The position numbers were made by a program, and so were the translations under genes. A DNA stretch of 64,000 nucleotides from Alphaproteobacteria bacterium (GTDB taxonomy: Bacteria; Pseudomonadota; Alphaproteobacteria; Rickettsiales; UBA3002): positions 862,629 through 926,628 of the forward strand of contig JAFLDD010000001.1 of the NCBI GenBank assembly GCA_017302575.1, written 5' to 3'. The notes beneath the pieces are model-generated. The model saw only the letters and a list, made by a program, of their open reading frames with translations. It was not told where the DNA came from and did not search any database. Position 1 is the stretch's first letter. Each line of letters opens with the position of its first letter. Shown here in pieces: positions 11,177 through 63,620 of the stretch.

Positions 11177-12304
11177 TTATGTGTGTAGGGGCAAATCGCC
11201 CTTTGCCCAACCGTGATGCAAACGCTCGCAGTGCGAGGAAAACTGCCCTTTTGCGATGGCATCGCGCAGCCCCTGCATCAATTCCTGATAGTAGTGCAGA
11301 TTATGCAAGGTCAGCAGCATTGGTCCTAGCATTTCATCGGCCTTGAATAGATGGTGCAGGTAGGCGCGGCTATAATCACGGCAAATAGGTGAGCTAGACG
11401 TTGGGTCAAGCGGGCGCGGATCATCCGCATGGCGGGCATTGCGGAGGTTAATCTCACCCATGCTCGTATAGGCACGTGCATTACGTGCTGAGCGCGTCGG
11501 GATGACGCAATCAAACATATCGACGCCACGACGGACCGCTTCGACAATATCATCTGGCTTGCCAACGCCCATCAGATAGCGCGGTGCATGCTCTGGAAGA
11601 TGTGGCATCGTGAAATCCAACACGCGAAGCATTTCAGCCTGCCCTTCACCCACCGCCAGACCGCCAATGGCGTAGCCATCAAATCCAATGCCTGTGAGCG
11701 CACGCGAGGAAATCTCGCGCAAATCATCATAGACGCTACCTTGCACGATACCGAATAGCGCATAGCCATCACGCGCCTTGAACGCATCTTTGGAACGCTG
11801 TGCCCAACGCATCGATAGCTCCATCGAACGTTTGGCTTCTTCATGTGTTGCGGGAAATGGCGTGCATTCGTCAAATACCATGGTGATGGTGCTGCCAAGC
11901 AGGTGCTGAATTTCAATGGAACGCTCGGGCGTGAGTTCCCATTTACTGCCATCAATATGCGATTGAAACGTAACGCCCTGCTCGCTCATTTTACGAAGTG
12001 CGGCAAGCGACATAACCTGAAATCCGCCTGAATCGGTAAGGATCGGACCCTGCCAGTTCATGAACTGATGCAGTCCGCCCAAGCGCGCAATACGCTCTGC
12101 CGTGGGGCGCAACATGAGGTGGTAGGTATTGCCTAAAATGATATCTGCACCCGTTGCCTTCACGTCTTCGGGGTGCATGGCTTTTACCGTGGCCGCCGTG
12201 CCAACGGGCATAAAGGCGGGCGTACGTATCGTGCCATGTGCTGTCGTGATTTCACCCGTGCGCGCTGCGCCATCGGTGGTGTGTATGTTTAGAGCAAATG
12301 TCAT
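11177..12304 (-). CDS. tgt: Queuine tRNA-ribosyltransferase
   Basis: [21 protein letters not shown] motifs; ATG 12304 (MTFALN...) chosen; the upstream ORF extension has no Tgt-like sequence. Confidence 0.93.
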
Positions 12305-12343
12305 CAAACCGTCATACTGAAAATAACGACAATTGACTACAAT
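12298..12343 (+). promoter_or_regulatory. Direct-repeat operator plus -10 module (ATGTCAT-CAAA-CCGTCAT-N19-GAC-TACAAT)
   Basis: Read directly; first repeat overlaps the tgt start codon on the other strand; GGAGG SD and ATG 12369 follow. Confidence 0.45.
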
Positions 12344-12368
12344 GGAAATAAGCGGAGGAGCAAGCAGG

Positions 12369-13040
12369 ATGTCGACAAAACCAGTCCCAAAGATAATTGC
12401 AGGCAGTGAGAATGCACCAGAATTGCTCACGCGTGAGACGCTCGATAATATGCGCGACACCATCCAGCAATCCATGCTCGATACAACTAACTATTTTTTC
12501 ATGTATCTTGAGAATCCAAACAATAAGCAAATTCCCGATTGTCTGCGCGTGAAGTTCAAATCTTTTGAGGGGCTCAATTTCTTGCGCGAAGAAGAGCCAG
12601 ATAGCCAATCACCATTTGAGATAATCGCGCAGGGGTTTCGCGAAATTCCCGAGGCAGATCGTAAAGAGATGTTGGCCCATCTCGGACAGATGCTTGAGAA
12701 GACCGTATTGATCTATCGCATCAAAGGACCGATGGAATTTGCTACACTTATTCCGATGGGCTATGCTGAGGAAAAGATGGACCCAGACACGCCGCTCAGC
12801 AGAGAGGAGGTGTTCTTTAAGGACGCGTGCTCGTTATTCCATTTCGTGCTGGCTTATAAAGGCTGCCTAATGCTGAATGAGAACGAATATCGAATGGGTT
12901 GCTACCCTAAAAACATCGATGACAAGCCTATAAATATGGCTGCATTCCTTTTTGAAAAGCGCGAGGGATTGGAAAGTTTCGTTGGTAAAGTTTCGCCCCT
13001 TTCCGAACTAGATCAGGGCGGCAAACGCAACATGTGCTAG
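12369..13040 (+). CDS. Orphan hypothetical protein (223 aa)
   Basis: ORF with GGAGG 10 nt upstream of ATG 12369; no family recognised; wedged between tgt and queA. Confidence 0.55.
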
Positions 13041-15727: not shown

Positions 15728-16255
15728 TTAAGCGCTTCTACGCGTTGTTACCTGCGATTCATATCGTGTGATAATATCGTCTAGCTGTTTAGCAAGTGCG
15801 TTGGCTTTTTCTTGAAACGTAGCAAGTAGTCTATTGGACGCTTGCAGTTTGTCGCACTCCTCGCCTTCTGCAGCAGGAAAGAACTCTAAATCCATCTTCA
15901 GTAACCTGAACTCTTCGTTACGGCCCTGCATGCGCGCTTGCACCCGCTTCAAGTCGTTTAGCACGGTTTCTGTGTCACGATTTTCTATCCCTTCCAACAG
16001 CATGAGTCCTGAAAAGAGGCGGTTGCCCACGTAATCATAAAACCAATCCACTGCACTATGAGAGGTCGTGCTAGGATGTTCTTGTGGCTTCGCATGCAGC
16101 AAACGCATTTTAGTGCGAATATCTTGAAACAATACGGTTAGCTGCTGATATTCATTCTCGTTAAGACTATTCAGCCCGCTTCGAAATTCTACAATTTCTC
16201 TGCGCAGATTGCTGGCATGAATATGATTATCTGGCGTTGCGTTATCGTAATGCAT
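15728..16255 (-). CDS. Orphan hypothetical protein (175 aa, predicted helical)
   Basis: Clean ORF; no SD; TGC-TAATAG sits 6 nt from the ATG; no family recognised. Confidence 0.55.
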   Translation of the reverse strand: MHYDNATPDNHIHASNLRREIVEFRSGLNSLNENEYQQLTVLFQDIRTKMRLLHAKPQEHPSTTSHSAVDWFYDYVGNRLFSGLMLLEGIENRDTETVLNDLKRVQARMQGRNEEFRLLKMDLEFFPAAEGEECDKLQASNRLLATFQEKANALAKQLDDIITRYESQVTTRRSA

Positions 16256-16261
16256 GCGACG

Positions 16262-16307
16262 CTATTAGCAGAATCCTAGTAGGGTAATTATGACAATTCG
16301 AAGAAAT
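16262..16307 (-). promoter_or_regulatory. Direct-repeat operator plus extended -10 module (ATTTCTT-CGAA-TTGTCAT-N19-TGC-TAATAG)
   Basis: Read directly; 22/23 nt identical to 16874-16896. Confidence 0.5.
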
Positions 16308-16349: not shown

Positions 16350-16841
16350 CTATTTTTTTGCGCCATCCATGCCGCTATTATGAAACGCCTTGGCTCTTTC
16401 ATTGAATAGTGGCATCGCAGTATCTAACTGCTGTTTGAGTGCCTCCAAATCTACACGCACCCCGCCGATGAGATACCCTAGCTGATTGTCATTTCTTTGA
16501 TCAATACTGTCCAAGATCTCAATAGCTGTATCGAGACGTTTTGCATAAGAAGAGGATAGTTGTTTTAGCTCGCGGTGGAAAATATCCTGCCCTAGTTCTG
16601 CTTTGGCGACGTAATTATTGATCACATTGCTCAAACGCCCTGGGAAAAAATCAGCACACTCACTATCCCAATGCTTTAGAAATTTAGCCAGTTCTGCACG
16701 AATAGCCGTATCTGTCGTTCTATAATCCAGTATCTCGTTTGCACTCGTAGAGAGCTTGCGCCACGCGTCCTTAACGGGCACGAATGGCCGAGTTTCCTCG
16801 ATTTCTAATACTACAACTTCACTGATAGGTTTAACATTCAT
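16350..16841 (-). CDS. Orphan hypothetical protein (163 aa, predicted helical)
   Basis: ATG 16841 (MNVKPI...) sits 6 nt from TGC-TATGTT; ORF-track start 16868 lies inside the promoter spacer. Confidence 0.55.
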   Translation of the reverse strand: MNVKPISEVVVLEIEETRPFVPVKDAWRKLSTSANEILDYRTTDTAIRAELAKFLKHWDSECADFFPGRLSNVINNYVAKAELGQDIFHRELKQLSSSYAKRLDTAIEILDSIDQRNDNQLGYLIGGVRVDLEALKQQLDTAMPLFNERAKAFHNSGMDGAKK

Positions 16842-16847
16842 GCGATT

Positions 16848-16893
16848 AACATAGCAGGTTAACAGCATGAATTTTATGACAATTCGATGAAAT
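16848..16893 (-). promoter_or_regulatory. Direct-repeat operator plus extended -10 module (ATTTCAT-CGAA-TTGTCAT-N19-TGC-TATGTT)
   Basis: Read directly; abuts the gyrA stop codon. Confidence 0.5.
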
Positions 16894-30098: not shown

Positions 30099-31276
30099 GC
30101 TATCCCCCTCGCCTTTGCTGCCCCATCCAAAAATCCCTGCAAGGTGGCATGTAGGGCCGGCACGTCCAGCAAGAAGGCGTCATGCCCTTTGTCGGTTTTG
30201 ATTTCGGTAAAACTTACACTTGCCGCTACGGCATTCAGCGCACGTACGATACGGCGCGATTCCTCGGTAGGGAATAACCAGTCGCTCGTGAAGCTGATGA
30301 CACAAAAGCGCACAGGCGTATTCAAGAAGGCGTGACTAAGATGCCCGTTATAATCACGCTCTAAATCAAAGTAATCCATCGCGCGGGTGATGTAGAGATA
30401 GGAGTTGGGGTCAAAGCGCTCAATAAAGGTTTTGCCTTGGTGGCGCAGGTACGACTCCACCTGAAAATCGATATCGAAGCCATAACCCAGCGCCGCTTTA
30501 TTCTGCAAGCGCCGACCGAATTTTTCGTGCAATGCCGTTTCAGAAAGATAGGTAACGTGCGCAGTCATGCGTGCAACGGCAAGCCCTTTGGAGGGGAACG
30601 TACCACGCTCAATATAGTGGCCTTCATTCCAATTAGGGTCAGCCATCACCGCTTGTCTGCCGATTTCGTGGAAGGCGATATTTTGTGGGCTGTGACGGGC
30701 GGCAGTGCAAATAGGCATGCAGGCAAACACACGCTCAGGATATTTTGCGGCCCATTCCAGCGCCAACATCCCGCCCATGGAGCCACCAATGACAGCAAAT
30801 AGCTGGTCGATGCCTAGCGCATCCATCAGGAGTGTTTGGGCGCGGGTCATGTCGCTGATGGTGAGGATCGGGAATTCAATGCCATATGGCTTGCCCGTTT
30901 TTGGGTTAATGGATTTGGGCCCTGAGGATCCCAGACATCCGCCCATCACATTGCTGACAATCAGAAAATATCTATCCGTATCCAGCACTTTACCTGGGCC
31001 GACAATATCTTCCCACCATCCAGGCTTCCCCGTGACGGGGTGCGTGCCTGAAATATACTGGTCACCTGTTAAGCCATGGCACAGCAAAATGGCGTTGGAT
31101 TTATCAGCATTCAGCGTGCCAAGCGTTTGGTAGGCTAGCGTAATCGTGTCCATGGTTGCGCCGCAATCAAACTGAAAGGGCGTATCTGGCGTAATATCGA
31201 TAAGCTGCCCAACTTCAGCCGCCGTATGCTGCGGGCCAAAATTCAAGCGCGTGGTGTAAGGTGCGGAAAGCTTCAT
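30095..31276 (-). CDS. metX: Homoserine O-acetyltransferase
   Basis: alpha/beta-hydrolase GGSMGG nucleophile elbow; typical MetX length and N-terminus. Confidence 0.93.
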
Positions 31277-31329
31277 ATGCCTTTCATAGATACTTGCAGT
31301 TCGAAGTGCAATGGTCTAGGCAATGAGCC

Positions 31330-32004
31330 ATGAGTGAGCCAGCAACCAAATCCAGTTTTGATGCACAATTACAGGCCTTGCGCGCCCGTATCGACGCGCT
31401 GGACGATAGGCTGATTGCCCTGATCAAAGAGCGTACGGGCATTATCCAAGAAGTTGCTGTGCTAAAGCGCGCGCACACGCCTAATGATTGTCACATTCGT
31501 CCTGCCCGCGAAGGTCAAATGCATAAGCGCATTTATGAAGCCTTCAAGGGTAGTGATTTCAATGTCCATGCGGCGGTCATTATCTGGCGGCATCTGATTA
31601 GCGCCAGCACCCATCTGGAATCACCTTTGAAAGTCATATCTTCTGCGCCGCGCCATTTAGGGCATGAATATTTTGGCCATTACGTTGACCACCACGATGC
31701 AGCCGATAGCGAAGAAGCCGTGCGCAGCGTAAGCGGCAAGCAGGCAAACATTGCCATTATCCCAACTCAGGATATTGCGCTGCTTGAGAAACACCCGACT
31801 TTGAAAATTTTCGCAGCGCTGCCTGTGATTGGCAATAAAGTCGAGGCAGTAGCCATTGCCGCACTTGCACCCGAACCATCAGGTGATGATGTCAGTTACT
31901 TCATTGACTCTGACCGTCATGTGGTCAGTGTTGCAGGTTTTGTGAAAGACCGCGCCGACTCGGTATGGGTTGGCACCCACCCTGCGCAACTTCGTAAGGA
32001 ATAA
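31330..32004 (+). CDS. Chorismate mutase (type II domain with C-terminal extension)
   Basis: LQALRARIDALDDRLIALIKERTGIIQEVAVLK CM_2 helix; extra C-terminal domain of about 130 aa. Confidence 0.75.
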   Translation: MSEPATKSSFDAQLQALRARIDALDDRLIALIKERTGIIQEVAVLKRAHTPNDCHIRPAREGQMHKRIYEAFKGSDFNVHAAVIIWRHLISASTHLESPLKVISSAPRHLGHEYFGHYVDHHDAADSEEAVRSVSGKQANIAIIPTQDIALLEKHPTLKIFAALPVIGNKVEAVAIAALAPEPSGDDVSYFIDSDRHVVSVAGFVKDRADSVWVGTHPAQLRKE

Positions 32005-40024: not shown

Positions 40025-40033
40025 CGCCTTCTC

Positions 40034-41555: not shown

Positions 41556-41650
41556 AAGCACTCCTTTAGCACAGCCTAATCGGCCAAGCGGCAGAGCGCA
41601 ATGCGATAATGCCCCTATAATCCCTTGATAAATCAATCTGTAAGAAGCGC

Positions 41651-41678
41651 TTGCAATTTCATTTTGCTTGCGTATGTT
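41651..41678 (+). promoter_or_regulatory. Putative sigma-70 promoter of tRNA-Gly (TTGCAA-N16-TATGTT)
   Basis: GCGC-TTGCAA context as at the tRNA-Lys promoter. Confidence 0.4.
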
Positions 41679-41694
41679 ACGCAGCCTCACGTGA

Positions 41695-41769
41695 GCGGGC
41701 GTAGCTCAGTGGTAGAGTGTCACCTTGCCAAGGTGAATGTCGAGAGTTCGAATCTCTTCGCCCGCTCCA
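41695..41769 (+). tRNA. tRNA-Gly (anticodon GCC), CCA encoded
   Basis: Acceptor GCGGGCG/CGCCCGC, anticodon arm TCACC-TTGCCAA-GGTGA, T-arm GAGAG-TTCGAAT-CTCTT. Confidence 0.93.
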
Positions 41770-43150: not shown

Positions 43151-43161
43151 AAACGATCTCC

Positions 43162-44303: not shown

Positions 44304-44479
44304 GATTCACCTCACGCTATAGTATAGAGAAGTGGGCCGCTTACGTCACGCAAAATCATTTCCAATTCATTGATATTGATGGATATTTTAATGGTGTTTC
44401 GCTCAAATTGTACCTATTTTGCACGCTTGTTTTCTACGTTCAATGTCGTTAGGTTATAGGACATTCACACGAGGTTATT

Positions 44480-45316: not shown

Positions 45317-45416
45317 TACAAATCCCGTTAGATGAAGCCAGCAGGCTGAATCAGCCTTGAGCCAGCGAAGCTGCGCGAAGGCGAGCACGGCGTGTGCGAG
45401 GCCGAAGCGTTACATG

Positions 45417-46424
45417 CTATTTACTCGTTGTATCCAGCACGCTGATAATGGCCGGAGCCATTACAATCACGAAGAGTGTTGGTAGAATAAATACGATCAT
45501 GGGCACGGTCATCATCGCGGGGAGTCGTGCTGCTTTTTGTTCAGCACGCAACATGCGCTCGGTGCGGAATTCTTTGGAGAGCACACGCAATGCTTGCGAG
45601 ATAGGCGTACCGTATTTATCGGTCTGCACAATCACGTTCACGAACCCTCGAATTTCTTGCAAATCCACACGATCAGCGAGGTTCTTAAGCGCCACTTGCC
45701 TGTCGGGCAGGAATCCCAACTCCACCGAAGTGAGGCTTAACTCCTCAGCAATTTCGGGATAGGTTCGGCCAAGCTCTTTGGAAACGCGATCCAAAGCTGC
45801 GGCCAAGCTTAAGCCAGCCTCGGCACAAATCATCATCAAATCCAGTGCGTCGGGTAAGCCTTTTTGAATCGCGTGATAACGTTTGTCGCGCTTGTTGCGA
45901 ATAATAATGTCGGGCAGCGATGAACCGAAATACGCAACCCCTAGCACGATAAGCCACTTCCACGCTTTCTTGGCTTCAAAGGGTGCTGCCCAGTCAATTT
46001 TAGCGAGAATCAGACCCAGTGCCAATGCTGCAAAAGGCGCAACCAGTTTGGCGAAAGCATAAATAATCACAGCATCTTTGCTACGGAATCCCGCACGCGT
46101 CATGCGTTTTTGCAACTCGCCCATTTGGTGCTGCTGCGTCAACTTCAACTGCGATACGACATTGCGGATAAACTCCATGCCGCTTTGTGATTTCACTTTT
46201 TTACGGCGCGTTGGGCCTATCAACCCTGATTTCAATTCCGCACGGCGTTCAGCGATTGCTTTGAGGCGCGGTGCCATGCGATCACGATCAATGAATAGCT
46301 GACCGATGGAGTATACCAGCAAGAATACCGTACCCATTGCGGTGACAAGCAGCACATCGTCTAAGGTTATCCCAAGGGGCAATAACGCTTCGATATTGAG
46401 TGGCTGTCCTGCTTGGTTGCTCAT
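45417..46424 (-). CDS. tadC: Tad pilus inner-membrane platform protein TadC (T2SS F family)
   Basis: GspF-like domain, C-terminal TM pair. Confidence 0.85.
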   Translation of the reverse strand: MSNQAGQPLNIEALLPLGITLDDVLLVTAMGTVFLLVYSIGQLFIDRDRMAPRLKAIAERRAELKSGLIGPTRRKKVKSQSGMEFIRNVVSQLKLTQQHQMGELQKRMTRAGFRSKDAVIIYAFAKLVAPFAALALGLILAKIDWAAPFEAKKAWKWLIVLGVAYFGSSLPDIIIRNKRDKRYHAIQKGLPDALDLMMICAEAGLSLAAALDRVSKELGRTYPEIAEELSLTSVELGFLPDRQVALKNLADRVDLQEIRGFVNVIVQTDKYGTPISQALRVLSKEFRTERMLRAEQKAARLPAMMTVPMIVFILPTLFVIVMAPAIISVLDTTSK

Positions 46425-47374
46425 ATTTCAAACTGCGTCATCTTACGCATGACGAACGCCCCCATAGCCATACTACATGCTGCACCAAGTGCTGACAGGT
46501 TGCCGCGATAATCCGTGTACAGCACCTTGATATAATCCGGCGAAACAATCGCCAGCATAATGAGAACGAAGAACGGCAAGGCGCCAACGATAAAACCAGA
46601 AGCCTTGGCTTCCGATGAGAGCGCTTTAATTTTGAGTTTCATCATAGCGCGGGCACGCAAAATTTCTGAGAGGTTACTCAGAATCTCGCCGAGGTTACCC
46701 CCCGTTTCACGCTGCAAGATAATGGTCGTCACGAAGAAGTTAAACTCGGTAAGCCCCAGTTTCGTCGCCACATCAGTCAGTGCCTTTTCAACGGGCACAC
46801 CCAGTGCGATTTGCTGGGCAATCGTGCCGAATACGGGTCCCACAGGTTGGCCAATCTCGCGTGAGACGATTTGCATCGACTCACTCACTGGCAAACCTGC
46901 GCGCAAACCCCGTACAATCAAATCAATCGCATCAGGGAACAGTTTAATGAATTCGATTTTGCGCTTCGCAAGCTTTTTGCCAACAATCATGTGCGGAAAG
47001 CCAATCCCGACAATCAGCCCGATGAGCAAGCCCAGAAGGATTTTCTTTTTAAGAATGATAACCAGCAGCGCCACTACAATCACGATAATCAGATTCATCA
47101 TCAAATAGCGCTTCGGCGTCATCTGCATGCCTGCGGTTTGCAGGCGCTCTGCGAGTGTTTCGAGATTCAGCTTTTTGACTTCACCAATGAATGGAAGCTT
47201 TGAATCCACTGCTTTACGACGCAAGCTTGATTGCCCCGACGTGCTTAGGGTGCTGGTGGCTGGCGTGCGCCCAACTACGCGTGCCATGCGAGCATTGCGT
47301 TTCTTGGCGCTGCCATCCGAGAAGGCGAACACTACGAGTAGCGCACCTAAAATCCCTGTGATTAAATACAGCAT
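46421..47374 (-). CDS. tadB: Tad pilus inner-membrane platform protein TadB
   Basis: GspF-like domain; overlaps tadC. Confidence 0.85.
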   Translation of the reverse strand: MLYLITGILGALLVVFAFSDGSAKKRNARMARVVGRTPATSTLSTSGQSSLRRKAVDSKLPFIGEVKKLNLETLAERLQTAGMQMTPKRYLMMNLIIVIVVALLVIILKKKILLGLLIGLIVGIGFPHMIVGKKLAKRKIEFIKLFPDAIDLIVRGLRAGLPVSESMQIVSREIGQPVGPVFGTIAQQIALGVPVEKALTDVATKLGLTEFNFFVTTIILQRETGGNLGEILSNLSEILRARAMMKLKIKALSSEAKASGFIVGALPFFVLIMLAIVSPDYIKVLYTDYRGNLSALGAACSMAMGAFVMRKMTQFEI

Positions 47375-47376
47375 GA

Positions 47377-48804
47377 TTACATCGCATCCAGCAGCGCTTT
47401 TTCGAGTCCGAAATAGGCTGCTTGTTTACAGAAATTGGGGCGTAATCCCGTGGATTTGAATTCACCAATCAGCTTGCCGTTAGCGTCTTCGCCTTGGAAT
47501 ACGTAGGTGTAGAGGTCTTGTGTAATCACCACCTCACCTTCCATCCCCACTACTTCTGTGACGTGCGTGATGCGGCGCATACCGTCACGCATACGCTGAA
47601 TCTGGACAATGAGCTGCACAGCAGAAGCAATCTGATGTCGTATGGCGCTCGATGGCAACTTGGTACCCGCCATGTTCACCATGTTCTCCAAACGCGTCAG
47701 CGCCTCACGCGGGTTATTGGCGTGGAGCGTTCCAAGCGAACCGTCGTGACCTGTGTTCATCGCTTGTAGTAAGTCGAGCGCCTCGCCACCGCGTACCTCA
47801 CCAAGGATAATGCGGTCAGGACGCATACGCAGCGCGTTTTTCACGAGGTCGCGCATGTTGATTTCACCACCACCCTCAAGGTTGGCTGGGCGTGTTTCAA
47901 GTGGCACGACGTGTGGCTGCTGTAATTGCAACTCTGCCGCATCCTCGATCGTTACGACGCGCTCGCCATGGTCAATCATGCGGCTGAGTGCGTTGAGTAA
48001 CGTGGTCTTACCCGAACCCGTACCGCCCGATACGATGATGTTGAGACGGCATGCGCCAGCAATCTTAAGGACCGTACAGAGATTTGGAGAAATATTGCCC
48101 TGCTGCGCCATGATATCGAGCGTGATTTTCTTTTTAGAGAATTTACGAATCGAAATACTACAGCCTTTAAGTGATAATGGCGTAGCAATGACGTTTACGC
48201 GTGAACCGTCTTTTAGGCGCGCATCGCATATTGGGCTTGATTCATCGACACGACGACCAACCGCTGTAACGATACGCTGCGCAATGTTCATGACGTGTTC
48301 ATTGTCGCGGAATTGAATGTCGGTCAGCTCCAACTTACCCTTGCGCTCGACATAAATTTGCTGTGGTCCATTCACCATAATATCCGTCACTGCTTCGTCT
48401 TTTAGCAGTGGCTCAAGCGGCCCTAGGCCAATCATGTCGTCCACGATTTGGTTGGCGAGTACGTGCTGCTCTGCCTGGTTGATGGCGAGTTTCTTCTCCA
48501 TCACGATTTCACCAATCAGGTCGGTAATCTGGCGACGCAATTCCTCTGCCTTAAGGCGCGAAGCGGTAGGCAGGTCAATCTGCTCCATCAAGGTGTTGTA
48601 GATAAGCTCTTTGGTTTTCTGCAATTCATCGTCAAGCTGCGGCGCATCCTTTGATACGGCCGTCATGTTCGGGTCACGCTCACTCAAACGCTCGTTAGTT
48701 GGTGCGGGCGCCGAGGTTGCTGCGGCTTCGGCGGGAACTGCTGGCGGCGTAGCAGCACTGGCAGGGCTAGCAACAGGGATATTCCTGCGTCCAAAACCTG
48801 ACAT
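47377..48804 (-). CDS. cpaF: Tad/Cpa pilus secretion ATPase CpaF/TadA
   Basis: Walker A GGTGSGKTT, Asp/His boxes, VirB11-like family. Confidence 0.93.
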   Translation of the reverse strand: MSGFGRRNIPVASPASAATPPAVPAEAAATSAPAPTNERLSERDPNMTAVSKDAPQLDDELQKTKELIYNTLMEQIDLPTASRLKAEELRRQITDLIGEIVMEKKLAINQAEQHVLANQIVDDMIGLGPLEPLLKDEAVTDIMVNGPQQIYVERKGKLELTDIQFRDNEHVMNIAQRIVTAVGRRVDESSPICDARLKDGSRVNVIATPLSLKGCSISIRKFSKKKITLDIMAQQGNISPNLCTVLKIAGACRLNIIVSGGTGSGKTTLLNALSRMIDHGERVVTIEDAAELQLQQPHVVPLETRPANLEGGGEINMRDLVKNALRMRPDRIILGEVRGGEALDLLQAMNTGHDGSLGTLHANNPREALTRLENMVNMAGTKLPSSAIRHQIASAVQLIVQIQRMRDGMRRITHVTEVVGMEGEVVITQDLYTYVFQGEDANGKLIGEFKSTGLRPNFCKQAAYFGLEKALLDAM

Positions 48805-48807
48805 GGC

Positions 48808-49986
48808 CTACGCTTTCTTGGGTGCGAATAGCCCACCCAACAATGGCTTGGCTTGAGGCTTTGCGCCATCTGCTGGTTTTTTTGCACCCACAATGAGCTG
48901 CACCACCGCATGAAGTGCCTTTTGTACATCAACATGCTTAACAGCTTTGGCTGCTAATTCACCTTGCGTTGCGGCGACAAAAATATCTGCTGTGAAGGGA
49001 ACATGGGCACTTATTTTTGTGCCAATATGCTTTTCAAAATCCGCTAATTTCAATTCGTGTTTGCCGTACATGCCTTCGCGATTACTAATGATTTTTGGCG
49101 CGGGGCGATGCAGTTGTTCCACCACATAGTCCTTGATACGCAGCGCGTCACGCAAGCTACCCAATGATAATTCGCTGACGATGATCACCTCATCTGCGGC
49201 CAGTAGCACGGCGCGGGTGAGCGGTGTCATCACGTGCGGCAAATCAACCAGTATCACTTCAAATTTCTCTCGCATCACCAGCAGCAGTTTCTCGGCGGCG
49301 TTGGCATCATGCGGCGTTGCCTCATGCAGAGGCTCTTCGGCGCTCAGCAAATAGAGGTTATCGACATACTTGGTCATCACACGATCGAGGAACAGTCCGT
49401 CGATACGGTCTGGTTTTTCAAGCGCGTCCTGCAAGCCACGGCTTGGCTCGATATCATGGGTGAGTGCTAGCGCACCAAAGTGCAAATCGAGGTCAATAAT
49501 AGCGGTTGGCTTCTTTTGCTCAGTGGCGATGATATAGCCCGTATTCGCAACAATAGTTGTTGCACCTACGCCGCCACGCGCACCAATGAATGCGACCACC
49601 TTGGATGGTTTCTTAGCCTCAGATTTATCGCCGCGCGCTGGCGCTTCCTTAAGAATTTCCTGCAATTGTGCGGCGGTGAACGGCTCAAGCAAATAGCCAT
49701 GCACGCCAATATCTTTGAGCCATTGATAAAAACGGAACGTGTCAATTTTTCCAGTAATCACCACTTTCGTTTCTGGCGCCACGACATCGGCCAATTGGTC
49801 GAGCATCGCTGGTGCGGCGTCGGCAGAAGGCACTTCGACGATCAAAAAGTCGGGTGAGGGATTTTCTTTTAGATACCCTACGGCATCCACTGCGCCGCCC
49901 TGAATCACCTTGGACGGCAGGGTGCTGAAGGCCTGCGCACACGCGTCTTTGCTGGGGCCATCGGTAAGAAACGCTATTACTTTCAT
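48808..49986 (-). CDS. cpaE: CpaE/TadZ (receiver-like N-domain plus ParA/MinD-type ATPase)
   Basis: Deviant Walker A GARGGVGATT. Confidence 0.85.
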   Translation of the reverse strand: MKVIAFLTDGPSKDACAQAFSTLPSKVIQGGAVDAVGYLKENPSPDFLIVEVPSADAAPAMLDQLADVVAPETKVVITGKIDTFRFYQWLKDIGVHGYLLEPFTAAQLQEILKEAPARGDKSEAKKPSKVVAFIGARGGVGATTIVANTGYIIATEQKKPTAIIDLDLHFGALALTHDIEPSRGLQDALEKPDRIDGLFLDRVMTKYVDNLYLLSAEEPLHEATPHDANAAEKLLLVMREKFEVILVDLPHVMTPLTRAVLLAADEVIIVSELSLGSLRDALRIKDYVVEQLHRPAPKIISNREGMYGKHELKLADFEKHIGTKISAHVPFTADIFVAATQGELAAKAVKHVDVQKALHAVVQLIVGAKKPADGAKPQAKPLLGGLFAPKKA

Positions 49987-50010
49987 GGTCGCCTATCGTT
50001 TGTTTAGTCG

Positions 50011-50355
50011 TTAGTTGCCAACATCGCTGAGTGGTTGGAGTGGTTGTGGAATCTCGCCAGCGCGATAACGCCCTACCGTACGCACGGTGCTCTCTGTATC
50101 GGTGCCAGAACCATGGCCGCGCACAGCATCGGCGGGGTCATCGAGTTGAATCGCTATGTTATTTGCCGTCGCACAGCCAAAATTACTATGCACACTATTA
50201 TCATAATTTTCTGTCTGATGGCTCCAATCCGGGCATGGTGCGGGCTTGGTGATTTCGCGAGTGACTGGATTGATCACCGCTTTTTTCTCGGCGGGCACAT
50301 AGTCATCGCATGCAGCAAGGGAGGCCAGTAACAGAATTGGCAGTATATGTTTCAT
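50011..50355 (-). CDS. cpaD: CpaD-like pilus assembly lipoprotein
   Basis: Lipobox LLLASLAAC; position between cpaE and cpaC. Confidence 0.65.
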   Translation of the reverse strand: MKHILPILLLASLAACDDYVPAEKKAVINPVTREITKPAPCPDWSHQTENYDNSVHSNFGCATANNIAIQLDDPADAVRGHGSGTDTESTVRTVGRYRAGEIPQPLQPLSDVGN

Positions 50356-50359
50356 GGCA

Positions 50360-51913
50360 TTACCTCATCAAGAATCCAGCTTGACCACGGCTACCTGCAA
50401 ATGCTGCATCAGGCGTCGTGGGTGCAGCAGGTGCTGCGGGCGGTAAATCGGCTTGCTTGGTTTCATCTACAGGCGCTGCTTCTGCATCACGAATCGCCTT
50501 CTCGGAATGCGGTGTTTTTGGCGACTCTCCTTGCAGTTTGCCAAGCACAATGCGCTCATAATCCGTTGGTGGCGTGTAGCCATCAAGCGGTGTAGCAAGC
50601 GTTGAGGGATCATCAATTGGCTTCACGATGTAAGGCGTGACGAGGATGACCAACTCGGTTTGGTTATTGCGGAATTCGCTTGAACGGAACAATGCACCCA
50701 AGACGGGAATATCACCCAGAATTGGGAATTCATTGATGTTATTTGCGTTGTCACTACGCAATAATCCTGCAATCGCGAAGGTCTGGCCACTACCTAAATC
50801 GACCGAGGTATTGGCGCGACGCGTTGTCAGTGCAGGTATGGTACCAAACGTTCCGCCCGTTATCGCGTTCTCGGTTGAAAGGGCGCTTACCTCAGGCAAG
50901 ACAGCAAGGTTGATTTTATCCTTGCTCATGACCGTCGGTGTAAATTGAAGGCTGACACCAAATTGGCGATATTCAATCGTCACGGTACCATCATCGCCTG
51001 GCACAGGAATTGGAATCTCACCACCCGCAAGGAAGTTAGCAGCTTGGCCCGAGCGCGCTGTTAAATTAGGCTCTGCGAGGATGCTGACCAATCCATCACG
51101 CTCGAGCGCATCAATCACCGCCGTGAAGTTATTGCCACCATCAATGTTACGAATGAAAAGGCTGTTATCGCCACTGGTGGTGTTGCGCAGCAATGTTCCC
51201 GTATCGCTGACAAAATCACGCCCCTGCCCCAAGCCGAAAATGAAATTACCTGGGCCGTTAAAGAGGCTCTCCCAGTTAATGCCAAAGCGTTTCAGCTCGG
51301 TGCGCGCCACCTCAACAATTTTAACTTTGAGCAACACCTGATCGCTCTGACTTGTATCCATCATATTAATGACGCTTTGGCCATTGCCACGCAGGAACGA
51401 TGTCGCCAAGCGACTGACCTTCTCGGCAAGCACGGGCGAGTTCACATCGCCTTTTAGGATGATTGCGTTATCGGTGGATGCTGCATCAATCTCGGCACCT
51501 GGCATCATTTGCGCGACGGCTTTGCGCAATTTGCTCAGGTTATGCGTTACAGTCACGGTACCTTGCAGAATAATGCGGTCATTCGCATCGACTGCCATAA
51601 TACTGGTTTCACCAATATTGCGACCGTTCACATAAATCATTTTAGGTGAGACTACTTGAACATCGGCGATGTCTGAATCCGCCACCACAACGGAAACTGC
51701 AGGTTCTTTTAAGCGGATCGGAATACCCTTATTTACTTCTACCGCGAACCCACTATCGAGCGAGGAACGCGCCAGCGTATCATAAAATTCTCCAGCTTCT
51801 TTGGTCGGCTTCGGTGGCGCAGCCATCACAGGATTCGCGCTAGCAAATACGAGTGCGCATGATGCGACATAGGATGTTGCACGACGCGTGAGCGATGTAC
51901 GTGGATGGGTCAT
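50360..51913 (-). CDS. cpaC: Tad/Cpa pilus secretin CpaC/RcpA
   Basis: BON-like N-domains and secretin C-domain (VLGDIPVLGALFRS). Confidence 0.9.
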   Translation of the reverse strand: MTHPRTSLTRRATSYVASCALVFASANPVMAAPPKPTKEAGEFYDTLARSSLDSGFAVEVNKGIPIRLKEPAVSVVVADSDIADVQVVSPKMIYVNGRNIGETSIMAVDANDRIILQGTVTVTHNLSKLRKAVAQMMPGAEIDAASTDNAIILKGDVNSPVLAEKVSRLATSFLRGNGQSVINMMDTSQSDQVLLKVKIVEVARTELKRFGINWESLFNGPGNFIFGLGQGRDFVSDTGTLLRNTTSGDNSLFIRNIDGGNNFTAVIDALERDGLVSILAEPNLTARSGQAANFLAGGEIPIPVPGDDGTVTIEYRQFGVSLQFTPTVMSKDKINLAVLPEVSALSTENAITGGTFGTIPALTTRRANTSVDLGSGQTFAIAGLLRSDNANNINEFPILGDIPVLGALFRSSEFRNNQTELVILVTPYIVKPIDDPSTLATPLDGYTPPTDYERIVLGKLQGESPKTPHSEKAIRDAEAAPVDETKQADLPPAAPAAPTTPDAAFAGSRGQAGFLMR

Positions 51914-52767
51914 TAGCGGAACTCCACTTCTTCGCGTTCTTTACCGCCGCGAATAATTTGCACTTTGGCACCAACAGCCATACGTGGCGTCACGATGGAG
52001 CTGACGTCACTATCACGCGTAACACTCTCCTCCTGACTTTTTTCAGCATTCTCTAATAAGGTGTGCAGATCAATCTCGCCTGCATCTTCCGTTTTTTCTG
52101 AGTCATCGTCTTTGGCAAGGCTACGCAAGCTTAGGCTGATTTTACCCAAATCCTTCGCAACGTTGATTTTCTCGGCTTGCTTGGGGGTGACCTCCAACGT
52201 CACCGTCTTAGCGAGCATGGCTTTATTCTCGGGATTATCGAGCATCTGATCGACCGCGAGGACACGCACGTCCTCTACGAAGGTTTCACTCGCACGCACG
52301 GGCGACTGACGACTTCCAGTGGAAAGCGTCAAAATCAAATCGACTTTATCACCAGGAAAAATAAAGCCCGCATTGCCCGACGTTGAATCCACCGCTATAG
52401 AAACTGCGCGCTTACCTTGCTCAAGCACCGCAGACATAAATCCGCCTTCGGTTGCTTTCACGAGCACATTTTTTACGACCGCCTCACCTTTTTGGATAGC
52501 GCGACGCGCAACGGAGCCGTCGAATTCTTTTAAGGTCACCTGACCATCCACCAACATAGATTCGGTGATGTTATCTTCAGGCCATTCTTTGAAGGTTAGA
52601 AAATCATTGGCACGCACGAAAGCGCCAGCAGGAATATCAATCGTTGCAACGACAATGCGTGGCCCCGTATTGGCATCGTCACTGCCCATACGACTTTTAA
52701 GGCCTAACGCCGTCACCAGCGCCAATATGGCGGCAACACCCAGCAATAGCAGACTACGTCCTTGCAT
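51913..52767 (-). CDS. cpaB: Flp pilus assembly protein CpaB/RcpC
   Basis: N-terminal TM helix, SAF-like domain; GGAG SD before ATG 52767. Confidence 0.85.
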   Translation of the reverse strand: MQGRSLLLLGVAAILALVTALGLKSRMGSDDANTGPRIVVATIDIPAGAFVRANDFLTFKEWPEDNITESMLVDGQVTLKEFDGSVARRAIQKGEAVVKNVLVKATEGGFMSAVLEQGKRAVSIAVDSTSGNAGFIFPGDKVDLILTLSTGSRQSPVRASETFVEDVRVLAVDQMLDNPENKAMLAKTVTLEVTPKQAEKINVAKDLGKISLSLRSLAKDDDSEKTEDAGEIDLHTLLENAEKSQEESVTRDSDVSSIVTPRMAVGAKVQIIRGGKEREEVEFR

Positions 52768-52851
52768 CGCTTCTCCCCTGTGCACTCTGCCGATTTACTC
52801 GGCTTATTTGTTTTTTAACTGTGGCACCCTACCACAGCTTTCACCACTTTA

Positions 52852-54437: not shown

Positions 54438-54824
54438 TTAGATTTCGCGGTGACCACCGCCGCCAGTGCCTAAATCACGCGGCAAGCCATGGCTAATCGG
54501 TGCGGACTGCACATCGTGAGCAAGCATGCGGGCAAACTCTGCGGCTTGTTGGTTGGCCTTGCTGAAATCCGACGACATTTGTGCCGCGATACGCGCCAGC
54601 AATGCTTGTTTACCAGGCTTAGCACCAATACGGCCACTATTAAGAAGCGATACGAGTGGTGTGTTGAGCGGGTTCTTGCCGATACCCAAAATCATCATCT
54701 GGAAACCGCCTGAAACATCCGCGTCAGGAATCATGCCGAATAGCGAGCCAGGCCCCATACCACCACGGGCGGCCTGCTCCATCGACTGCATTTGGGCTAT
54801 TCGACTGATAATATCATCTGCCAT
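54438..54824 (-). CDS. Orphan Gly-rich hypothetical protein (128 aa)
   Basis: Clean ORF; no SD; perfect extended -10 sits 6 nt from the ATG. Confidence 0.5.
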   Translation of the reverse strand: MADDIISRIAQMQSMEQAARGGMGPGSLFGMIPDADVSGGFQMMILGIGKNPLNTPLVSLLNSGRIGAKPGKQALLARIAAQMSSDFSKANQQAAEFARMLAHDVQSAPISHGLPRDLGTGGGGHREI

Positions 54825-54830
54825 GGACCC

Positions 54831-54839
54831 ATTATACCA
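54831..54839 (-). promoter_or_regulatory. Extended -10 promoter TGGTATAAT, 6 nt from ATG 54824 (leaderless arrangement)
   Basis: Read directly on the minus strand: TGGTATAAT-GGGTCC-ATG. Confidence 0.55.
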
Positions 54840-54870
54840 CGATAAAGGTTACGATAGTATTACAAAAACA

Positions 54871-55263
54871 CTAGTTTACGAGGGCTTTCTTAAAGGGGCA
54901 ATCGAGCGAAAACGCTGGGATATCAACGTCAAAATGCTCTCCCTTGGTGTTCACCATTTCGTAGGCGCCGAGCATAATGCCTGATGGCGTATTCAGCGAC
55001 GTGCCCGAGGTATATTGAAATGCCTTGCCTGGTTCAATCACTGGCGTTTCACCAATGACCCCTGGCCCACGCACTTCTTGGGTGAGGCCCTGCTCGTCCG
55101 TAATCTGCCAATAACGATTGAGCAGTTGCACCGTTTCGGAACCATGATTTTCAAGTTGAATCGTGTAGGCCCAGACATAATGACCGTCTGATGGCTCGGA
55201 GTGCTCGTTCAAGAACGTCGGCACTGCGGTGACTTTAATGTCGCGTGTAACTTTGCTGAACAT
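54871..55263 (-). CDS. apaG: ApaG (DUF525) protein
   Basis: YVWAYTIQLENHG...YWQITD...VRGPGVIGETP signature. Confidence 0.92.
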   Translation of the reverse strand: MFSKVTRDIKVTAVPTFLNEHSEPSDGHYVWAYTIQLENHGSETVQLLNRYWQITDEQGLTQEVRGPGVIGETPVIEPGKAFQYTSGTSLNTPSGIMLGAYEMVNTKGEHFDVDIPAFSLDCPFKKALVN

Positions 55264-56459: not shown

Positions 56460-57685
56460 GCCACCTTTTTAGGCGGTTCCATCATCTTTGGCAAATCACC
56501 AATGAGCCCCATCGCATGACGCATGAAGAAATGTTTGAGAGGCGGCATACGCTCGACCATCTTAAGGCCAGTGCGACGCAAGAATGCCAACGATGGCGAG
56601 CGGTTCGAGAATAGGCGATTCAGCAAGTCGGTGCTTGCGGTCATGCTTACAGAATCAAATTTCCGCCAGCGTTGATAATGCTTCAACAGCTCGGCATCGC
56701 CCAAGTCGCGTTTGTGTTGGTGCTGTTCAATCAGCAACTCAGATAGCACTGCGACATCGCGGTAACCAAGGTTCACACCCTGACCCGCAATGGGGTGAAT
56801 GCCATGCGCTGCATCACCCACTAATACAAAACGTGACGCGATGAATTCCGTCGCGGTTTGGAGTTTGAGCGGATAGGCGAAGCGCTTGCCCACGGCTTTT
56901 ACCTTGCCCCAATACTCGCCGCTGCGACGCGCAAGCTCGGCATTAAATTCGTCGTCACTTAGTTTCATATAATGTGCAGCGTCATCTTCATGCTCTGTCC
57001 AGACGATGCCACTACGATGCGTTCCATGCGCATCGTCGATCAATGGCAACACCGCAAACGGCCCTGCAGGCATGAAGCGTTCCAGCGCGAGGCCTTGATG
57101 GGGATTCTCATGCTCCATCACACACACAATCGCCGTTTGGTCATAGGAGATGATGCGATAATCAATGCCCGCTTTATCGCGCAGGCCTGAAAATCTACCA
57201 TCCGCCGCGACGAGCAATGGGGCTTTGAGTTCGCGACCATTATCGAGTTTAGCGACCACATGTGTATCGAAGGTTTCATAATCCGTGACTTTCAGGCCGC
57301 TCAACATGGTGATGCCCGACTGCTCGGTAACTTTCTTATAAAGCCCACGGCGAATCATGTGATTTTCGATGATGTAGCCAAATGGTTCATCGCCCACGTC
57401 TTTGTCGTGGTAATGCACGAAACCTTGGGCGAAACCATCGCACACGCGAATATCGTGGATGGGCGAAATATTCGGCGCGATATAATTCCACGCACCGATA
57501 TGCTCTAAGATTCGCACCGAGCCGAGCGCGATGGCGCTGGTGCGCCCATCAAAACTGGTTTCGATCTGATCCTTGGCGGGGATTGGGTCAATTACCACCA
57601 CATTCAGGCCGCCCTGCGCGAGTGCGAGCGCCAGCGCATTGCCAACCAGACCGCCCCCTGCGATGATGATGTCATGAGATTCCAT
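56456..57685 (-). CDS. UbiH/UbiF/Coq6-family FAD-dependent ubiquinone hydroxylase
   Basis: IIIAGGGLVG FAD motif, LVGDAAHGIHPIAGQG motif. Confidence 0.88.
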   Translation of the reverse strand: MESHDIIIAGGGLVGNALALALAQGGLNVVVIDPIPAKDQIETSFDGRTSAIALGSVRILEHIGAWNYIAPNISPIHDIRVCDGFAQGFVHYHDKDVGDEPFGYIIENHMIRRGLYKKVTEQSGITMLSGLKVTDYETFDTHVVAKLDNGRELKAPLLVAADGRFSGLRDKAGIDYRIISYDQTAIVCVMEHENPHQGLALERFMPAGPFAVLPLIDDAHGTHRSGIVWTEHEDDAAHYMKLSDDEFNAELARRSGEYWGKVKAVGKRFAYPLKLQTATEFIASRFVLVGDAAHGIHPIAGQGVNLGYRDVAVLSELLIEQHQHKRDLGDAELLKHYQRWRKFDSVSMTASTDLLNRLFSNRSPSLAFLRRTGLKMVERMPPLKHFFMRHAMGLIGDLPKMMEPPKKVA

Positions 57686-57812
57686 GACGCTGGTGTAGCA
57701 CGCGCCAGATTACTTGCAAACATGACTCTTTTTTATGCAGCTTGCTGTTTCTATTGGCATGGCCGCGACGCAGGCCAATGTTTATCCTATTGATTTCACT
57801 CATTATATAGAC

Positions 57813-58807: not shown

Positions 58808-59017
58808 CTAGTGGAGGCTCACAGGGTCGAGGTTGTTTTGACGCGCCGTGTAATAGGCGCCTTCCTCGGTTGGGAAGATGGCAAGCTGCGTACCGTCTGC
58901 GGCGAATACTGCAAAGCCTGCTTCGTTACCATCGGTTACTGGCTTAATGTAGGCCATGGTCTCAACGCCTACCATTGACATCATCAGCTCTTCCAAGGTT
59001 ACGGTTTCAACTTGCAT
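58808..59017 (-). CDS. DUF1150-family small protein
   Basis: MAYIKPV...FAVFAADGTQLAIF...ARQNNLDPVSLH pattern; GGAGA SD before ATG 59017. Confidence 0.75.
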   Translation of the reverse strand: MQVETVTLEELMMSMVGVETMAYIKPVTDGNEAGFAVFAADGTQLAIFPTEEGAYYTARQNNLDPVSLH

Positions 59018-59051
59018 ATTCTGTCTCCCAGTCGGTTTTTGTCTTACTTGC

Positions 59052-59097
59052 AATCTAACAAAAATCGGCCGCGCCATGTGTGACAGTTGCGTGAAAT
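59052..59097 (-). promoter_or_regulatory. Direct-repeat operator plus extended -10 module (ATTTCAC-GCAA-CTGTCAC-N19-TGT-TAGATT)
   Basis: Read directly; same 46-nt architecture as the other sites. Confidence 0.45.
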
Positions 59098-59112: not shown

Positions 59113-59130
59113 TTGTCATAGAGTTGTCAT
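59113..59130 (+). promoter_or_regulatory. Near-consensus Pho-box-like direct repeat TTGTCAT-AGAG-TTGTCAT, inverted relative to 59080-59097
   Basis: Read directly; no -10 at the module spacing on the plus strand. Confidence 0.4.
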
Positions 59131-59164
59131 ATTTGAAGGGGGTCTTACCCCCGCCGCTTTACGG

Positions 59165-59902: not shown

Positions 59903-60946
59903 TTATCTACCGCCCCTACCATCATTCTGTCGGATAAGTGGCGCGGGAGATTCCGCTGGTGCTTCTGTAGCAGGCTGAATAGGCGCAACTTGTCCAGCGC
60001 CGTTTAATATATCCCTCTGCTGCTGTAAGATGCCTTCTGCTGTTTCTTCAAATAACTGCCTGCGTTCATCCACTGTTGTAAAACTAAGGGATGCAGTAGC
60101 TAAATTTTGATAGTCTCTGGATTGTATGGCTTCTAAGCGCTGGTCGCGCGCGGACTGAAAATCCACGTTGTTAAAATAACCTTGATTATATATTGCTATT
60201 TCCTCAGGGTACATAAGAGGTGTAGTTGTCATTGCGTCTTCATCAACAGAAGCGGGCACGCCAACAAAGGGAAAGCCTGCGATAAATCTATCAAAACTCC
60301 AATTTGAGCCTTCCATTGATTGGTAATATACTGGCATTGACCCACTATTAATTGTTGATTCAAATACGTTGCCCGTTATTGAAGATATATGCCACTGATG
60401 CCACTCGCTTACTGAGGCATCAGCGTAAAAGCCTTCAACCACGTAATAATCTCCAGCACGCCTTAAGTCGTTTGGACGATCACTATTAATAGATCCAAGC
60501 ACATCGTCATCGTTCTCAACACGTTGCATCAGCAATGCTTCAACTACCGACATTTCTGAACAATCAAACTTACGTTGATCTGATAGAGTATTAAAGTTGC
60601 TGAGTCGCAAACCACTTGCTCGATATTCAGAGAAAAGTGGCTCTTCGCCCATTTCTTCAGAAACGATTTGTCCTAAGTTAGCTTCCCACGCTTCGCGTTG
60701 AGATCTCCCCCAACCAGGCATGGCTAATAGGCTCTGTGCGGTTGATGAAGTTGCCAATCTATCTCTAATACGCGACTCAACTCTTCGAAACGCCTGAGCA
60801 AATTCAGAATCATCTTCAATATTAATCGGTCGACTTAACTCTGGAACGGTAGTTGTATTCACCGCTCTATCACGCAAAATAGCATTCGCAGACACAGCAA
60901 CATAGCCGTCACGAATCATTTCAATTCTATCAGGATACTGACCCAC
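59903..60946 (-). CDS. Orphan protein (347 aa) with possible Cys/His transglutaminase-like core
   Basis: AT-rich ORF inserted between ftsK and lolA; FDCSEMSVVEALL ... EWHQWHISSITGNVFEST ordering; start GTG 60946 or ATG 60919. Confidence 0.55.
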   Translation of the reverse strand: MGQYPDRIEMIRDGYVAVSANAILRDRAVNTTTVPELSRPINIEDDSEFAQAFRRVESRIRDRLATSSTAQSLLAMPGWGRSQREAWEANLGQIVSEEMGEEPLFSEYRASGLRLSNFNTLSDQRKFDCSEMSVVEALLMQRVENDDDVLGSINSDRPNDLRRAGDYYVVEGFYADASVSEWHQWHISSITGNVFESTINSGSMPVYYQSMEGSNWSFDRFIAGFPFVGVPASVDEDAMTTTPLMYPEEIAIYNQGYFNNVDFQSARDQRLEAIQSRDYQNLATASLSFTTVDERRQLFEETAEGILQQQRDILNGAGQVAPIQPATEAPAESPAPLIRQNDGRGGR

Positions 60947-63495: not shown

Positions 63496-63501
63496 AGAAG
63501 C

Positions 63502-63590
63502 GGCTGGCGGCGGGCGATGCCCCCGCGAATCCGGTCAGGGCCGAAAGGCAGCAGCCGTAACGGGATTCGCATCGGGTCGTCCGTCAGCCA
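63502..63590 (+). ncRNA. ffs: Signal recognition particle 4.5S RNA
   Basis: Conserved GGTCAGGGCCGAAAGGCAGCAGCC domain-IV core; long terminal helix GGCTGGCGG.../...CCGTCAGCC; located upstream of dnaX. Confidence 0.85.
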
Positions 63591-63620
63591 CTTCACCGCA
63601 AGGCGAAGTGGCTTCGTCTT
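63587..63620 (+). terminator. Stem-loop after ffs
   Basis: GCCACTTC-N10-GAAGTGGC followed by a T-rich ttcgtctt. Confidence 0.45.

Follow-up and report, generated by a model that had tools for sequence, protein, structure and literature searches.

The DNA analysed here (the window) is a 64,000-nt stretch, positions 862,629 to 926,628 of contig JAFLDD010000001.1, from an alphaproteobacterium of the lineage UBA3002 (Rickettsiales; GenBank assembly GCA_017302575.1). It carries four orphan genes, A to D (coordinates in Table 1), all on the minus strand, whose ATG start codons are preceded at a very short distance by a promoter-like element. An earlier note on this DNA had described the element as TGn and a -10 hexamer, then 6 nt and the ATG, lacking a Shine-Dalgarno (SD) sequence, and had predicted that transcription begins at the A of the ATG, which would make the mRNAs leaderless. 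All four sites read exactly as described. The range 54822-54839 given for gene A precisely spans its TGG to its ATG, and an SD core (GGAG, GAGG or AGGA) is present at none of the four.

Gene A has no Pfam and no NCBIfam match. BLASTP local alignments identified three homologues at 95, 82 and 66% identity, the last covering 73% of the query; wherever context exists, they are located directly 3' of apaG. The ratio of nonsynonymous to synonymous divergence (dN/dS) was 0.04-0.20 at a dS of 0.83-2.0, and the codon score was 0.27, the best of six frames, with statistics trained on the window. Gene B likewise matched neither Pfam nor NCBIfam. Its four homologues are 39-62% identical; three are situated between a divergent pyrB and a tetratricopeptide repeat (TPR) gene as in the window, the neighbours of the fourth, on a 2.3-kb contig, differ. 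A scan of genome contigs with the B alignment returned only two weak partial matches, in Granulosicoccaceae. The dN/dS of B was 0.06-0.10, its codon score was positive and the annotated frame was the best of six. Thus, both genes are under clear purifying selection (dN/dS 0.04-0.2), and A and B are real protein-coding genes. In both, the AUG from which translation would begin is the first start of the open reading frame (ORF). The N-terminus of B is conserved: the three closer homologues share MD(G/E)NQ(P/L)V, of which the most distant one has a looser version. In the B alignment, read by eye, changes at third codon positions set in right after the ATG.

An AlphaFold2 model of the B protein had a mean predicted local distance difference score (pLDDT) of 70.7 and a predicted template modelling score (pTM) of 0.72. 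Among the PDB matches listed by Foldseek the best 50 were all protein kinases, e.g. LCK, Src, GSK3 and the type III effector kinase NleH2; the similarity was weak (E = 5.6e-4, TM about 0.3). Kinase-like motifs were recognized by eye (G-x-G-x-x-G-VVY, KRFR, D-H-x-K-K-x-N and IDLF). As modelled, B resembles a minimal and divergent protein kinase.

C and D are probably protein-coding genes. A HMMER search of 1.84 billion representative proteins with C returned only the self-match, as did a word-indexed search of 5.8 billion clustered proteins with D. A scan of metagenome contigs with the C protein found no relatives, and neither protein matched Pfam. The C/D locus was also sought in relatives via the CoaD gene; the 80 loci returned were all at 59% identity or less and included no close relative. 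The two ORFs fill the whole gap between coaD and gyrA in the same orientation as their neighbours. For translation of C and D from the proposed AUG the evidence is the codon score. The GC content at third codon positions (GC3) is below that of housekeeping genes in all of A to D, with 0.43-0.45 in C and D compared to 0.56 in the training genes. Public gene calls agree on all four starts (128, 332, 175 and 163 aa for A to D), and NCBI likewise places the start of D at 16841. D has an in-frame ATG nine codons further upstream (16868), which lies inside the 21-nt spacer described below, i.e. upstream of the -10.

The arrangement at the four sites is rare. Of the 2547 ATGs on both strands of the window only three have TGn-TAnnnT-N6 in front of them, namely the start codons of genes A, B and D. 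The looser pattern TGnTA-N10-ATG matched 13 ATGs, five of which are gene starts: A to D and a ubiH-like gene. Because the stricter pattern is so infrequent, the four-site arrangement exceeds what chance would produce. The duplex energies with the anti-SD sequence were -3.3, +0.4, +0.2 and +1.0 kcal/mol for A, B, C and D. An SD measure based on this energy was dropped since -5 kcal/mol or less was reached by 19.5% of random ATGs; the strict core-motif test was used instead. The first 40 nt of the four predicted mRNAs had minimum free energies of -0.1 to -4.5 kcal/mol (z = +0.37 to +1.56 against shuffled sequences). The 5' ends are no more structured than shuffles, which is weak evidence that they are accessible. 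The start codon is ATG in all four genes (4/4), and no known RNA family of Rfam was found near the sites.

Next we consider the orthologues of A. An alignment from the 3' end of apaG to the beginning of A compared the window with three orthologues of distinct sequence. The window and the 95% and 82% relatives have the hexamer TATAAT, the 66% relative has TACAAT. The hexamer is followed by 6, 7, 7 and 5 nt, respectively, before the ATG, and the spacer sequence is different each time (GGGTCC, AGACGCC, AGCTCAC, GACGC). No SD was present upstream of A in any of the four. In the rest of the intergenic region there is an 11-nt indel, and identity, counted by eye, is about 43%, which is also the value for the 21-nt spacer. 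Because synonymous divergence is 0.83-2.0, the conservation of the hexamer is not simply due to shared ancestry. A second conserved element is the GTAATA half-site; KTAATA-N21-TAYAAT is retained in the window and in the three distinct orthologues. The earlier note had seen only a half-site at A, and this was borne out: GTAATA sits where B, C and D carry the promoter-proximal GTCATA or TTCACA of a direct repeat. Because A combines a perfect -10 with only a half-site, it is plausible that it is constitutive rather than part of a regulon; however, two of the three distinct orthologues are without the TGn extension. A second repeat with an 11-bp period was noticed upstream of A (window 54858-54874, minus strand, TGTAATactatCGTAAC). 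The most distant orthologue has TGTAATaaaacTGTAAC, ending 11 nt before the -10; repeats of this type are absent from the two closer orthologues, which have an 11-nt deletion there.

In B the -10 region reads TGC-TAGACT in the window and TGC-TAGAGT, TGT-TATAAT and TGT-TATAAT in the three closer orthologues, with the ATG always exactly 6 nt on, after A-rich, variable spacers. The TGn thus precedes the hexamer in all four window genes and in these three orthologues. Further upstream, AAATCTTCACA, part of the direct repeat TTCAYAaaatcTTCACA, is unchanged in all five sequences of the B alignment. Behind a divergent intergenic region, B comes first and so must be transcribed from a promoter of its own.

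Upstream of C and D, sequence similarity is confined to three identically spaced blocks: the repeat, of which TTC(T/A)TCgaattGTCATA is common to both, CTGCTA and TCGCATG. The D promoter begins just past the gyrA ORF (end at 16893). Recent duplication of C and D was considered and rejected: the proteins are unrelated (E = 1.5) and share only these short upstream blocks. Unrelated proteins behind three blocks at fixed spacing indicate a shared regulatory design and not recent duplication.

The promoters of B, C and D belong to a class that recurs in the window. It consists of a direct repeat KTCAYN-N5-KTCAYA with an 11-bp period, 21 nt and TAnnnn, and was searched for as [GT]TC[AT][CT]-N6-[GT]TCA[CT]A-N21-TA. 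Six copies were found in the window where Markov simulations predicted 0.03. In these six sites, in the B orthologues and before an additional orphan gene of a relative the repeat ends exactly 21 nt before the -10. The last of these is a seventh independent case; there the gene behind the repeat is a different orphan of 145 aa, with TATAAT-N7-ATG. The pattern matched four times in 469 kb of unrelated control DNA (the CoaD-neighbour loci), with one identical repeat in all. Nearly all repeats lie upstream of proteins without a known family. Sequence beyond the window, about 2.3 kb at one end and less than 1 kb at the other, contained no further repeat promoter.

Two members of the class are informative because of their leaders. 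At the 223-aa orphan starting at 12369, which matched neither Pfam nor NCBIfam, a GGAGGAG is located 8 nt before the ATG; at the DUF1150 gene starting at 59017 (69 aa in an independent gene call) the predicted leader is about 28 nt. As these two members are leadered and SD-bearing, the in-register hexamer is probably a real -10 with a transcription start site (TSS) just downstream. In B, C and D a TSS in the same register would fall on the ATG itself. Because it is 21-23 nt away from the -10, the TTGTCA or TTCACA of the repeat was rejected as a -35 box. In reverse orientation the repeat reads TATGAC-N5-(G/T)ATGAC and contains a 'TAnnnn-N6-ATG' module (12300-12316 and 59116-59132). The tgt start, ATG 12304 (375-aa gene call, NCBIfam alignment), is inside the operator of the divergent 12369 orphan, and a similar arrangement exists at ATG 59119. 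ATG 12273, being out of frame, was discarded as a candidate for a leaderless start of tgt; 12304 is the true start.

How do other genes of the window compare? The earlier note had contrasted the orphans with housekeeping genes, nearly all of which were thought to have GGAG-type SDs. This contrast did not hold. With a strict core (GGAG, GAGG or AGGA at a spacer of 4-10) an SD was present at the first start in 14 of 63 window genes and at any start in the first 30 codons in 21 of 63, i.e. only about a third, against a background of 3.2% per random ATG. Genes without a strict core include gyrA, apaG, argG, ubiH, queA and metX. Nor is the arrangement peculiar to orphans, as had been proposed: the same geometry exists at the ubiH-like gene, metX, a chorismate mutase gene and argG. 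Window-wide, TA is at -12/-11 (spacer 6) in 14/63 first starts compared to 3.7% of all ATGs (binomial P = 6e-8). Spacer 6 is a sharp peak; every other spacer from 3 to 10 nt accounts for 3-6 genes. Full promoters, TTGnnn-N16-18-TAnnnn-N5-8-ATG, occur at 27 of 2546 ATGs, six of which are gene starts; argG and apaG have a spacer of 8, which makes apaG borderline.

The ubiH-like gene is a housekeeping candidate for a leaderless mRNA. Its promoter is wholly conserved in the relative with the 82%-identical gene A protein; the DNA further upstream diverges. In the divergent pair metX/chorismate mutase gene, TTGCAC-N17-TATGAA-N6-ATG faces TTGCAG-N17-TAGGCA-N7-ATG, and the -35 boxes overlap as a palindrome (TTGCACTTCGAACTGCAA). 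The short distance between the two ATGs leaves almost no room for leaders. Judged from this geometry, both mRNAs are probably leaderless.

Table 1. Genes, promoter elements and repeat sites in the window.
Feature	Coordinates	Strand	Details
Gene A	54438..54824	-	orphan, 128 aa; ATG is the first possible start codon of the ORF
A promoter core	54825..54839	-	TGG (54839-54837), TATAAT (54836-54831), 6-nt spacer GGGTCC, ATG (54824)
A half-site	54858..54863	-	GTAATA, exactly 21 nt upstream of TATAAT
Gene B	2304..3302	-	orphan, 332 aa, putative divergent protein-kinase-like fold; ATG is the first start in the ORF
B promoter core	3303..3317	-	TGC, TAGACT (3314-3309), GAAAAA, ATG (3302)
B direct repeat	3336..3352	-	TTCATAaaatcTTCACA, 21 nt upstream of the -10; in register with C, D and other sites
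Gene C	15728..16255	-	absolute ORFan, 175 aa; codon score 0.17, best of six frames
C promoter	16256..16305	-	repeat TTCTTCgaattGTCATA (16305-16289), N21, TGC-TAATAG (16267-16262), CGTCGC, ATG (16255)
Gene D	16350..16841	-	absolute ORFan, 163 aa; codon score 0.23, best of six frames
D promoter	16842..16891	-	repeat TTCATCgaattGTCATA (16891-16875), N21, TGC-TATGTT (16853-16848), AATCGC, ATG (16841)
Repeat sites (six strict)	3336-3352(-), 16289-16305(-), 16875-16891(-), 12300-12316(+), 59079-59095(-), 8278-8294(-), 26293-26309(-)		
Leadered member, 223-aa orphan	12300..12371	+	GTCATCaaaccGTCATA, N21, TACAAT (12338-12343), predicted 19-nt leader with GGAGGAG, ATG 12369
Leadered member, DUF1150 protein	59015..59095	-	TTCACGcaactGTCACA, N21, TAGATT (59057-59052), 34 nt with GGGAG, ATG 59017
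UbiH-family hydroxylase gene promoter	57683..57719	-	TTGCAA-N16-(TGC)TACACC-AGCGTC-ATG, no SD
metX/chorismate mutase gene	31274..31332	both	divergent; metX ATG 31276 (-), chorismate mutase gene ATG 31330 (+); 53 bp between the ATGs
Gene starts with full promoter	57685, 31276, 31330, 21751, 55263, 56459		ubiH-like, metX, chorismate mutase gene, argG, apaG, M20 peptidase

Taken together, we consider it fairly probable that the mRNAs of A, B, C and D are leaderless and arise from promoters in which the -10 ends 6 nt before the ATG. Of the earlier prediction the start at the A of the ATG stands as the best reading, because the -10 hexamers of the A and B orthologues are kept 5-7 nt from the ATG and because B, C and D share a recurring promoter; the contrast with SD-led housekeeping genes fell away. 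The geometry, its rarity, the conservation in orthologues, the recurring architecture and the coding status of the genes are observed; the position of the TSS and the mode of translation are predicted from them. In the proposed mechanism RNA polymerase would start at, or within one base of, the A of the start codon, the resulting mRNA would have neither a 5' untranslated region nor an SD, and ribosomes would recognize the unstructured 5'-terminal AUG by analogy to leaderless mRNAs elsewhere. The promoters would function without a -35 box. A would use the consensus TATAAT together with the TGn present in this genome and the conserved half-site; B, C and D would depend on the direct repeat KTCAYN-N5-KTCAYA at a fixed 21 bp upstream of the -10. 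TGn alone is unlikely to be the source of promoter activity because it is lost in two A orthologues and because an upstream operator is also conserved for B, C and D.

Several observations weigh against this interpretation. At none of the four sites was a -35 hexamer found, and a scan with the sigma-70 consensus calls none of them. Of the A orthologues only the most distant one has the TGG of the window as its TGn extension; the two closer ones read TAG. The most distant B orthologue (39%) has CCG-CATAAT, 30 nt and then the ATG. Because of this gap the -10-to-ATG arrangement of B is, as far as the alignment tells, evolutionarily labile. The hexamer of C, TAATAG, agrees with TATAAT in just 3/6 positions, and the conserved T at its end is missing; if TAGGAT, located 17 nt before the ATG, were the -10 instead, the leader would be about 10 nt long. 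As orthologues of C and D are lacking, the case for these two genes has to be made from the architecture. Further, in two genes of the repeat type on the minus strand, with ATG 8242 (8242-8294) and ATG 26254 (26254-26309), the 8- and 10-nt spacers that separate the in-register hexamer from the ATG contain an SD-like GGAG or GAGGA. A TSS just behind the hexamer would leave this SD outside of the mRNA, which the simple model does not explain. Finally, the gap between apaG and A is 46 nt and no intrinsic terminator was found in it, nor between gyrA and D or D and C. Lack of terminators upstream of A, D and C makes it likely that read-through, leadered transcripts exist too.

This last point leads to the first alternative, i.e. 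that A, C and D are mainly expressed from longer leadered or polycistronic transcripts (apaG-A, gyrA-D-C) by SD-independent internal initiation, like the majority of genes here, and that the hexamers are weak internal promoters or incidental. The very short gaps without terminator-like hairpins are in line with it, and about two thirds of the window genes are without a core SD, yet must be translated. However, the hexamer and its distance of 5-7 nt were kept across the A and B orthologues at a dS of 0.8-2.7 whereas neighbouring bases were not; B requires its own promoter, and the repeat-N21-hexamer architecture recurs 6-7 times. We therefore regard read-through as an unlikely main route; it probably coexists with leaderless transcription rather than replacing it.

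A second alternative accepts the promoters and places the start near the ATG instead of at it. Leaders would then be 1-5 nt or about 10 nt, above all in C, via TAGGAT, and in the orthologues with 5- or 7-nt spacers. Indeed, spacers range from 5 to 8 nt (5-7 in A orthologues, 8 at argG, apaG and ATG 8242), and TAGGAT in C follows the repeat at 10 nt, a PhoB-like spacing. On the other hand, the mode at spacer 6 is sharp, and very short leaders have been reported to reduce translation compared to truly leaderless mRNAs (bioRxiv 10.1101/2020.05.06.081141), so selection should favour a +1 at the A. For these reasons we consider short leaders quite unlikely. That C and D, or even all four genes, are unexpressed, with ORFs and motifs having arisen by chance in intergenic or decaying DNA, is highly improbable: the missing homologues of C and D in the databases searched, their codon scores at the low end and their reduced GC3 would fit, but the coaD-gyrA gap is taken up entirely by ORFs of 163-175 aa that point the same way as their neighbours, no other of the six frames scores as well as the annotated one, the same three-block promoter precedes both, and A and B are under purifying selection.

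Leaderless transcription of A to D would be in good company. About 17% of mRNAs are leaderless in Caulobacter crescentus (bioRxiv 10.1101/2020.05.06.081141), and 171 leaderless TSSs, all with AUG, were mapped in Sinorhizobium meliloti (PMC3616915). In Deinococcus deserti the share is 47-60%, and leaderless mRNAs are common in mycobacteria as well (PMC3616915, bioRxiv 10.1101/2020.05.06.081141). A to D resemble the leaderless mRNAs of other bacteria in the AUG start, the absence of an SD, the unstructured 5' end and the restriction to a minority of genes which includes housekeeping genes. Their accessible AUG 5' ends match the determinants in Caulobacter (bioRxiv 10.1101/2020.05.06.081141) and the all-AUG rule of S. 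meliloti (PMC3616915). Nothing differs in kind; here the TSSs are predicted, and the organism is represented by a metagenome-assembled genome (MAG) of an uncultured bacterium. A difference is that half of the clearest cases here belong to one activator-type promoter class. With extended -10 promoters A shares TGG-TATAAT without a -35, and B, C, D and the closer B orthologues share TGC or TGT before the hexamer; in contrast, TGn is not conserved in two A orthologues, and B, C and D have a conserved operator in addition. If confirmed, this uncultured alphaproteobacterial lineage would use leaderless initiation for about 10-20% of its genes, similar to Caulobacter. It would also mean that promoter geometry by itself suffices to assign the start codons of ORFans with confidence, which would help the annotation of MAGs. 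As such, leaderless mRNAs at A to D are a sound prediction of a textbook-known phenomenon in a new organism and will not surprise the specialist.

The more original by-product is the orphan-gene regulon with its repeat operator at a fixed distance. The repeat operators define a candidate response-regulator regulon of orphan genes. A repeat with an 11-bp period at a fixed 21 bp from the -10 (about -51 to -35) is what one would expect for an OmpR/PhoB-type activator with a winged helix; not only the identity but even the existence of this activator is inferred from it. A response-regulator gene was not present among the window ORFs scanned, i.e. all but about a dozen. The distance to the -10 is about 10 bp for the E. 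coli pho box and 21 bp for the repeat in the window, and, unlike in the PhoB regulon, no pst or pho genes are among the targets seen here. The GTCAT half-site is similar to the core of the E. coli pho box, CTGTCAT (PMC4415409). Tandem direct repeats with an 11-bp period, half-sites like GTCAT and the absence of a -35 are common to the window class and to class II activation by pho boxes and the OmpR family (PMC4415409). In the targets, mostly lineage-specific proteins of unknown function, the putative class resembles the Legionella PmrA regulon with its approximately 40 effector genes (PMC6989116), a further case of activation by the OmpR family.

A wider reading, which we offer as a tentative possibility, is that a single winged-helix response regulator controls a regulon of fast-evolving, lineage-specific genes, secreted or effector-like and including the kinase-fold protein, through an operator 21 bp from the -10, with mostly leaderless mRNAs, in a lineage with a small genome that is possibly host-associated. 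If true, activator-dependent transcription would be hard-wired to SD-independent translation, and the reversed operator, a ready-made '-10 plus start codon', could ease the birth of new leaderless genes. The repeat-N21 class provides a sequence handle for listing a regulon of unclassifiable orphan proteins genome-wide.

Other features of the window may be mentioned briefly. At least 10 of about 63 ORFs are without a Pfam family, e.g. 9823-10881, 24611-25870, 28596-29507, 59903-60919, 7073-8242 and 12369-13040. A Tad/Flp pilus cluster (41783-52785, minus strand) contains genes for TadE-like, TadG/VWA, T2SS-F, secretin and RcpC proteins; an ExbB/ExbD/TonB cluster (38176-40942) is located upstream of it. 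The RNA genes are those for the bacterial small signal recognition particle RNA (63499-63595, plus strand), tRNA-Lys(UUU) (11029-11104, minus strand) and tRNA-Gly(GCC) (41695-41769, plus strand). The ORF 41232-41690 is unlikely to be a real gene; it comes within 5 nt of the tRNA-Gly gene, which is encoded on the other strand.

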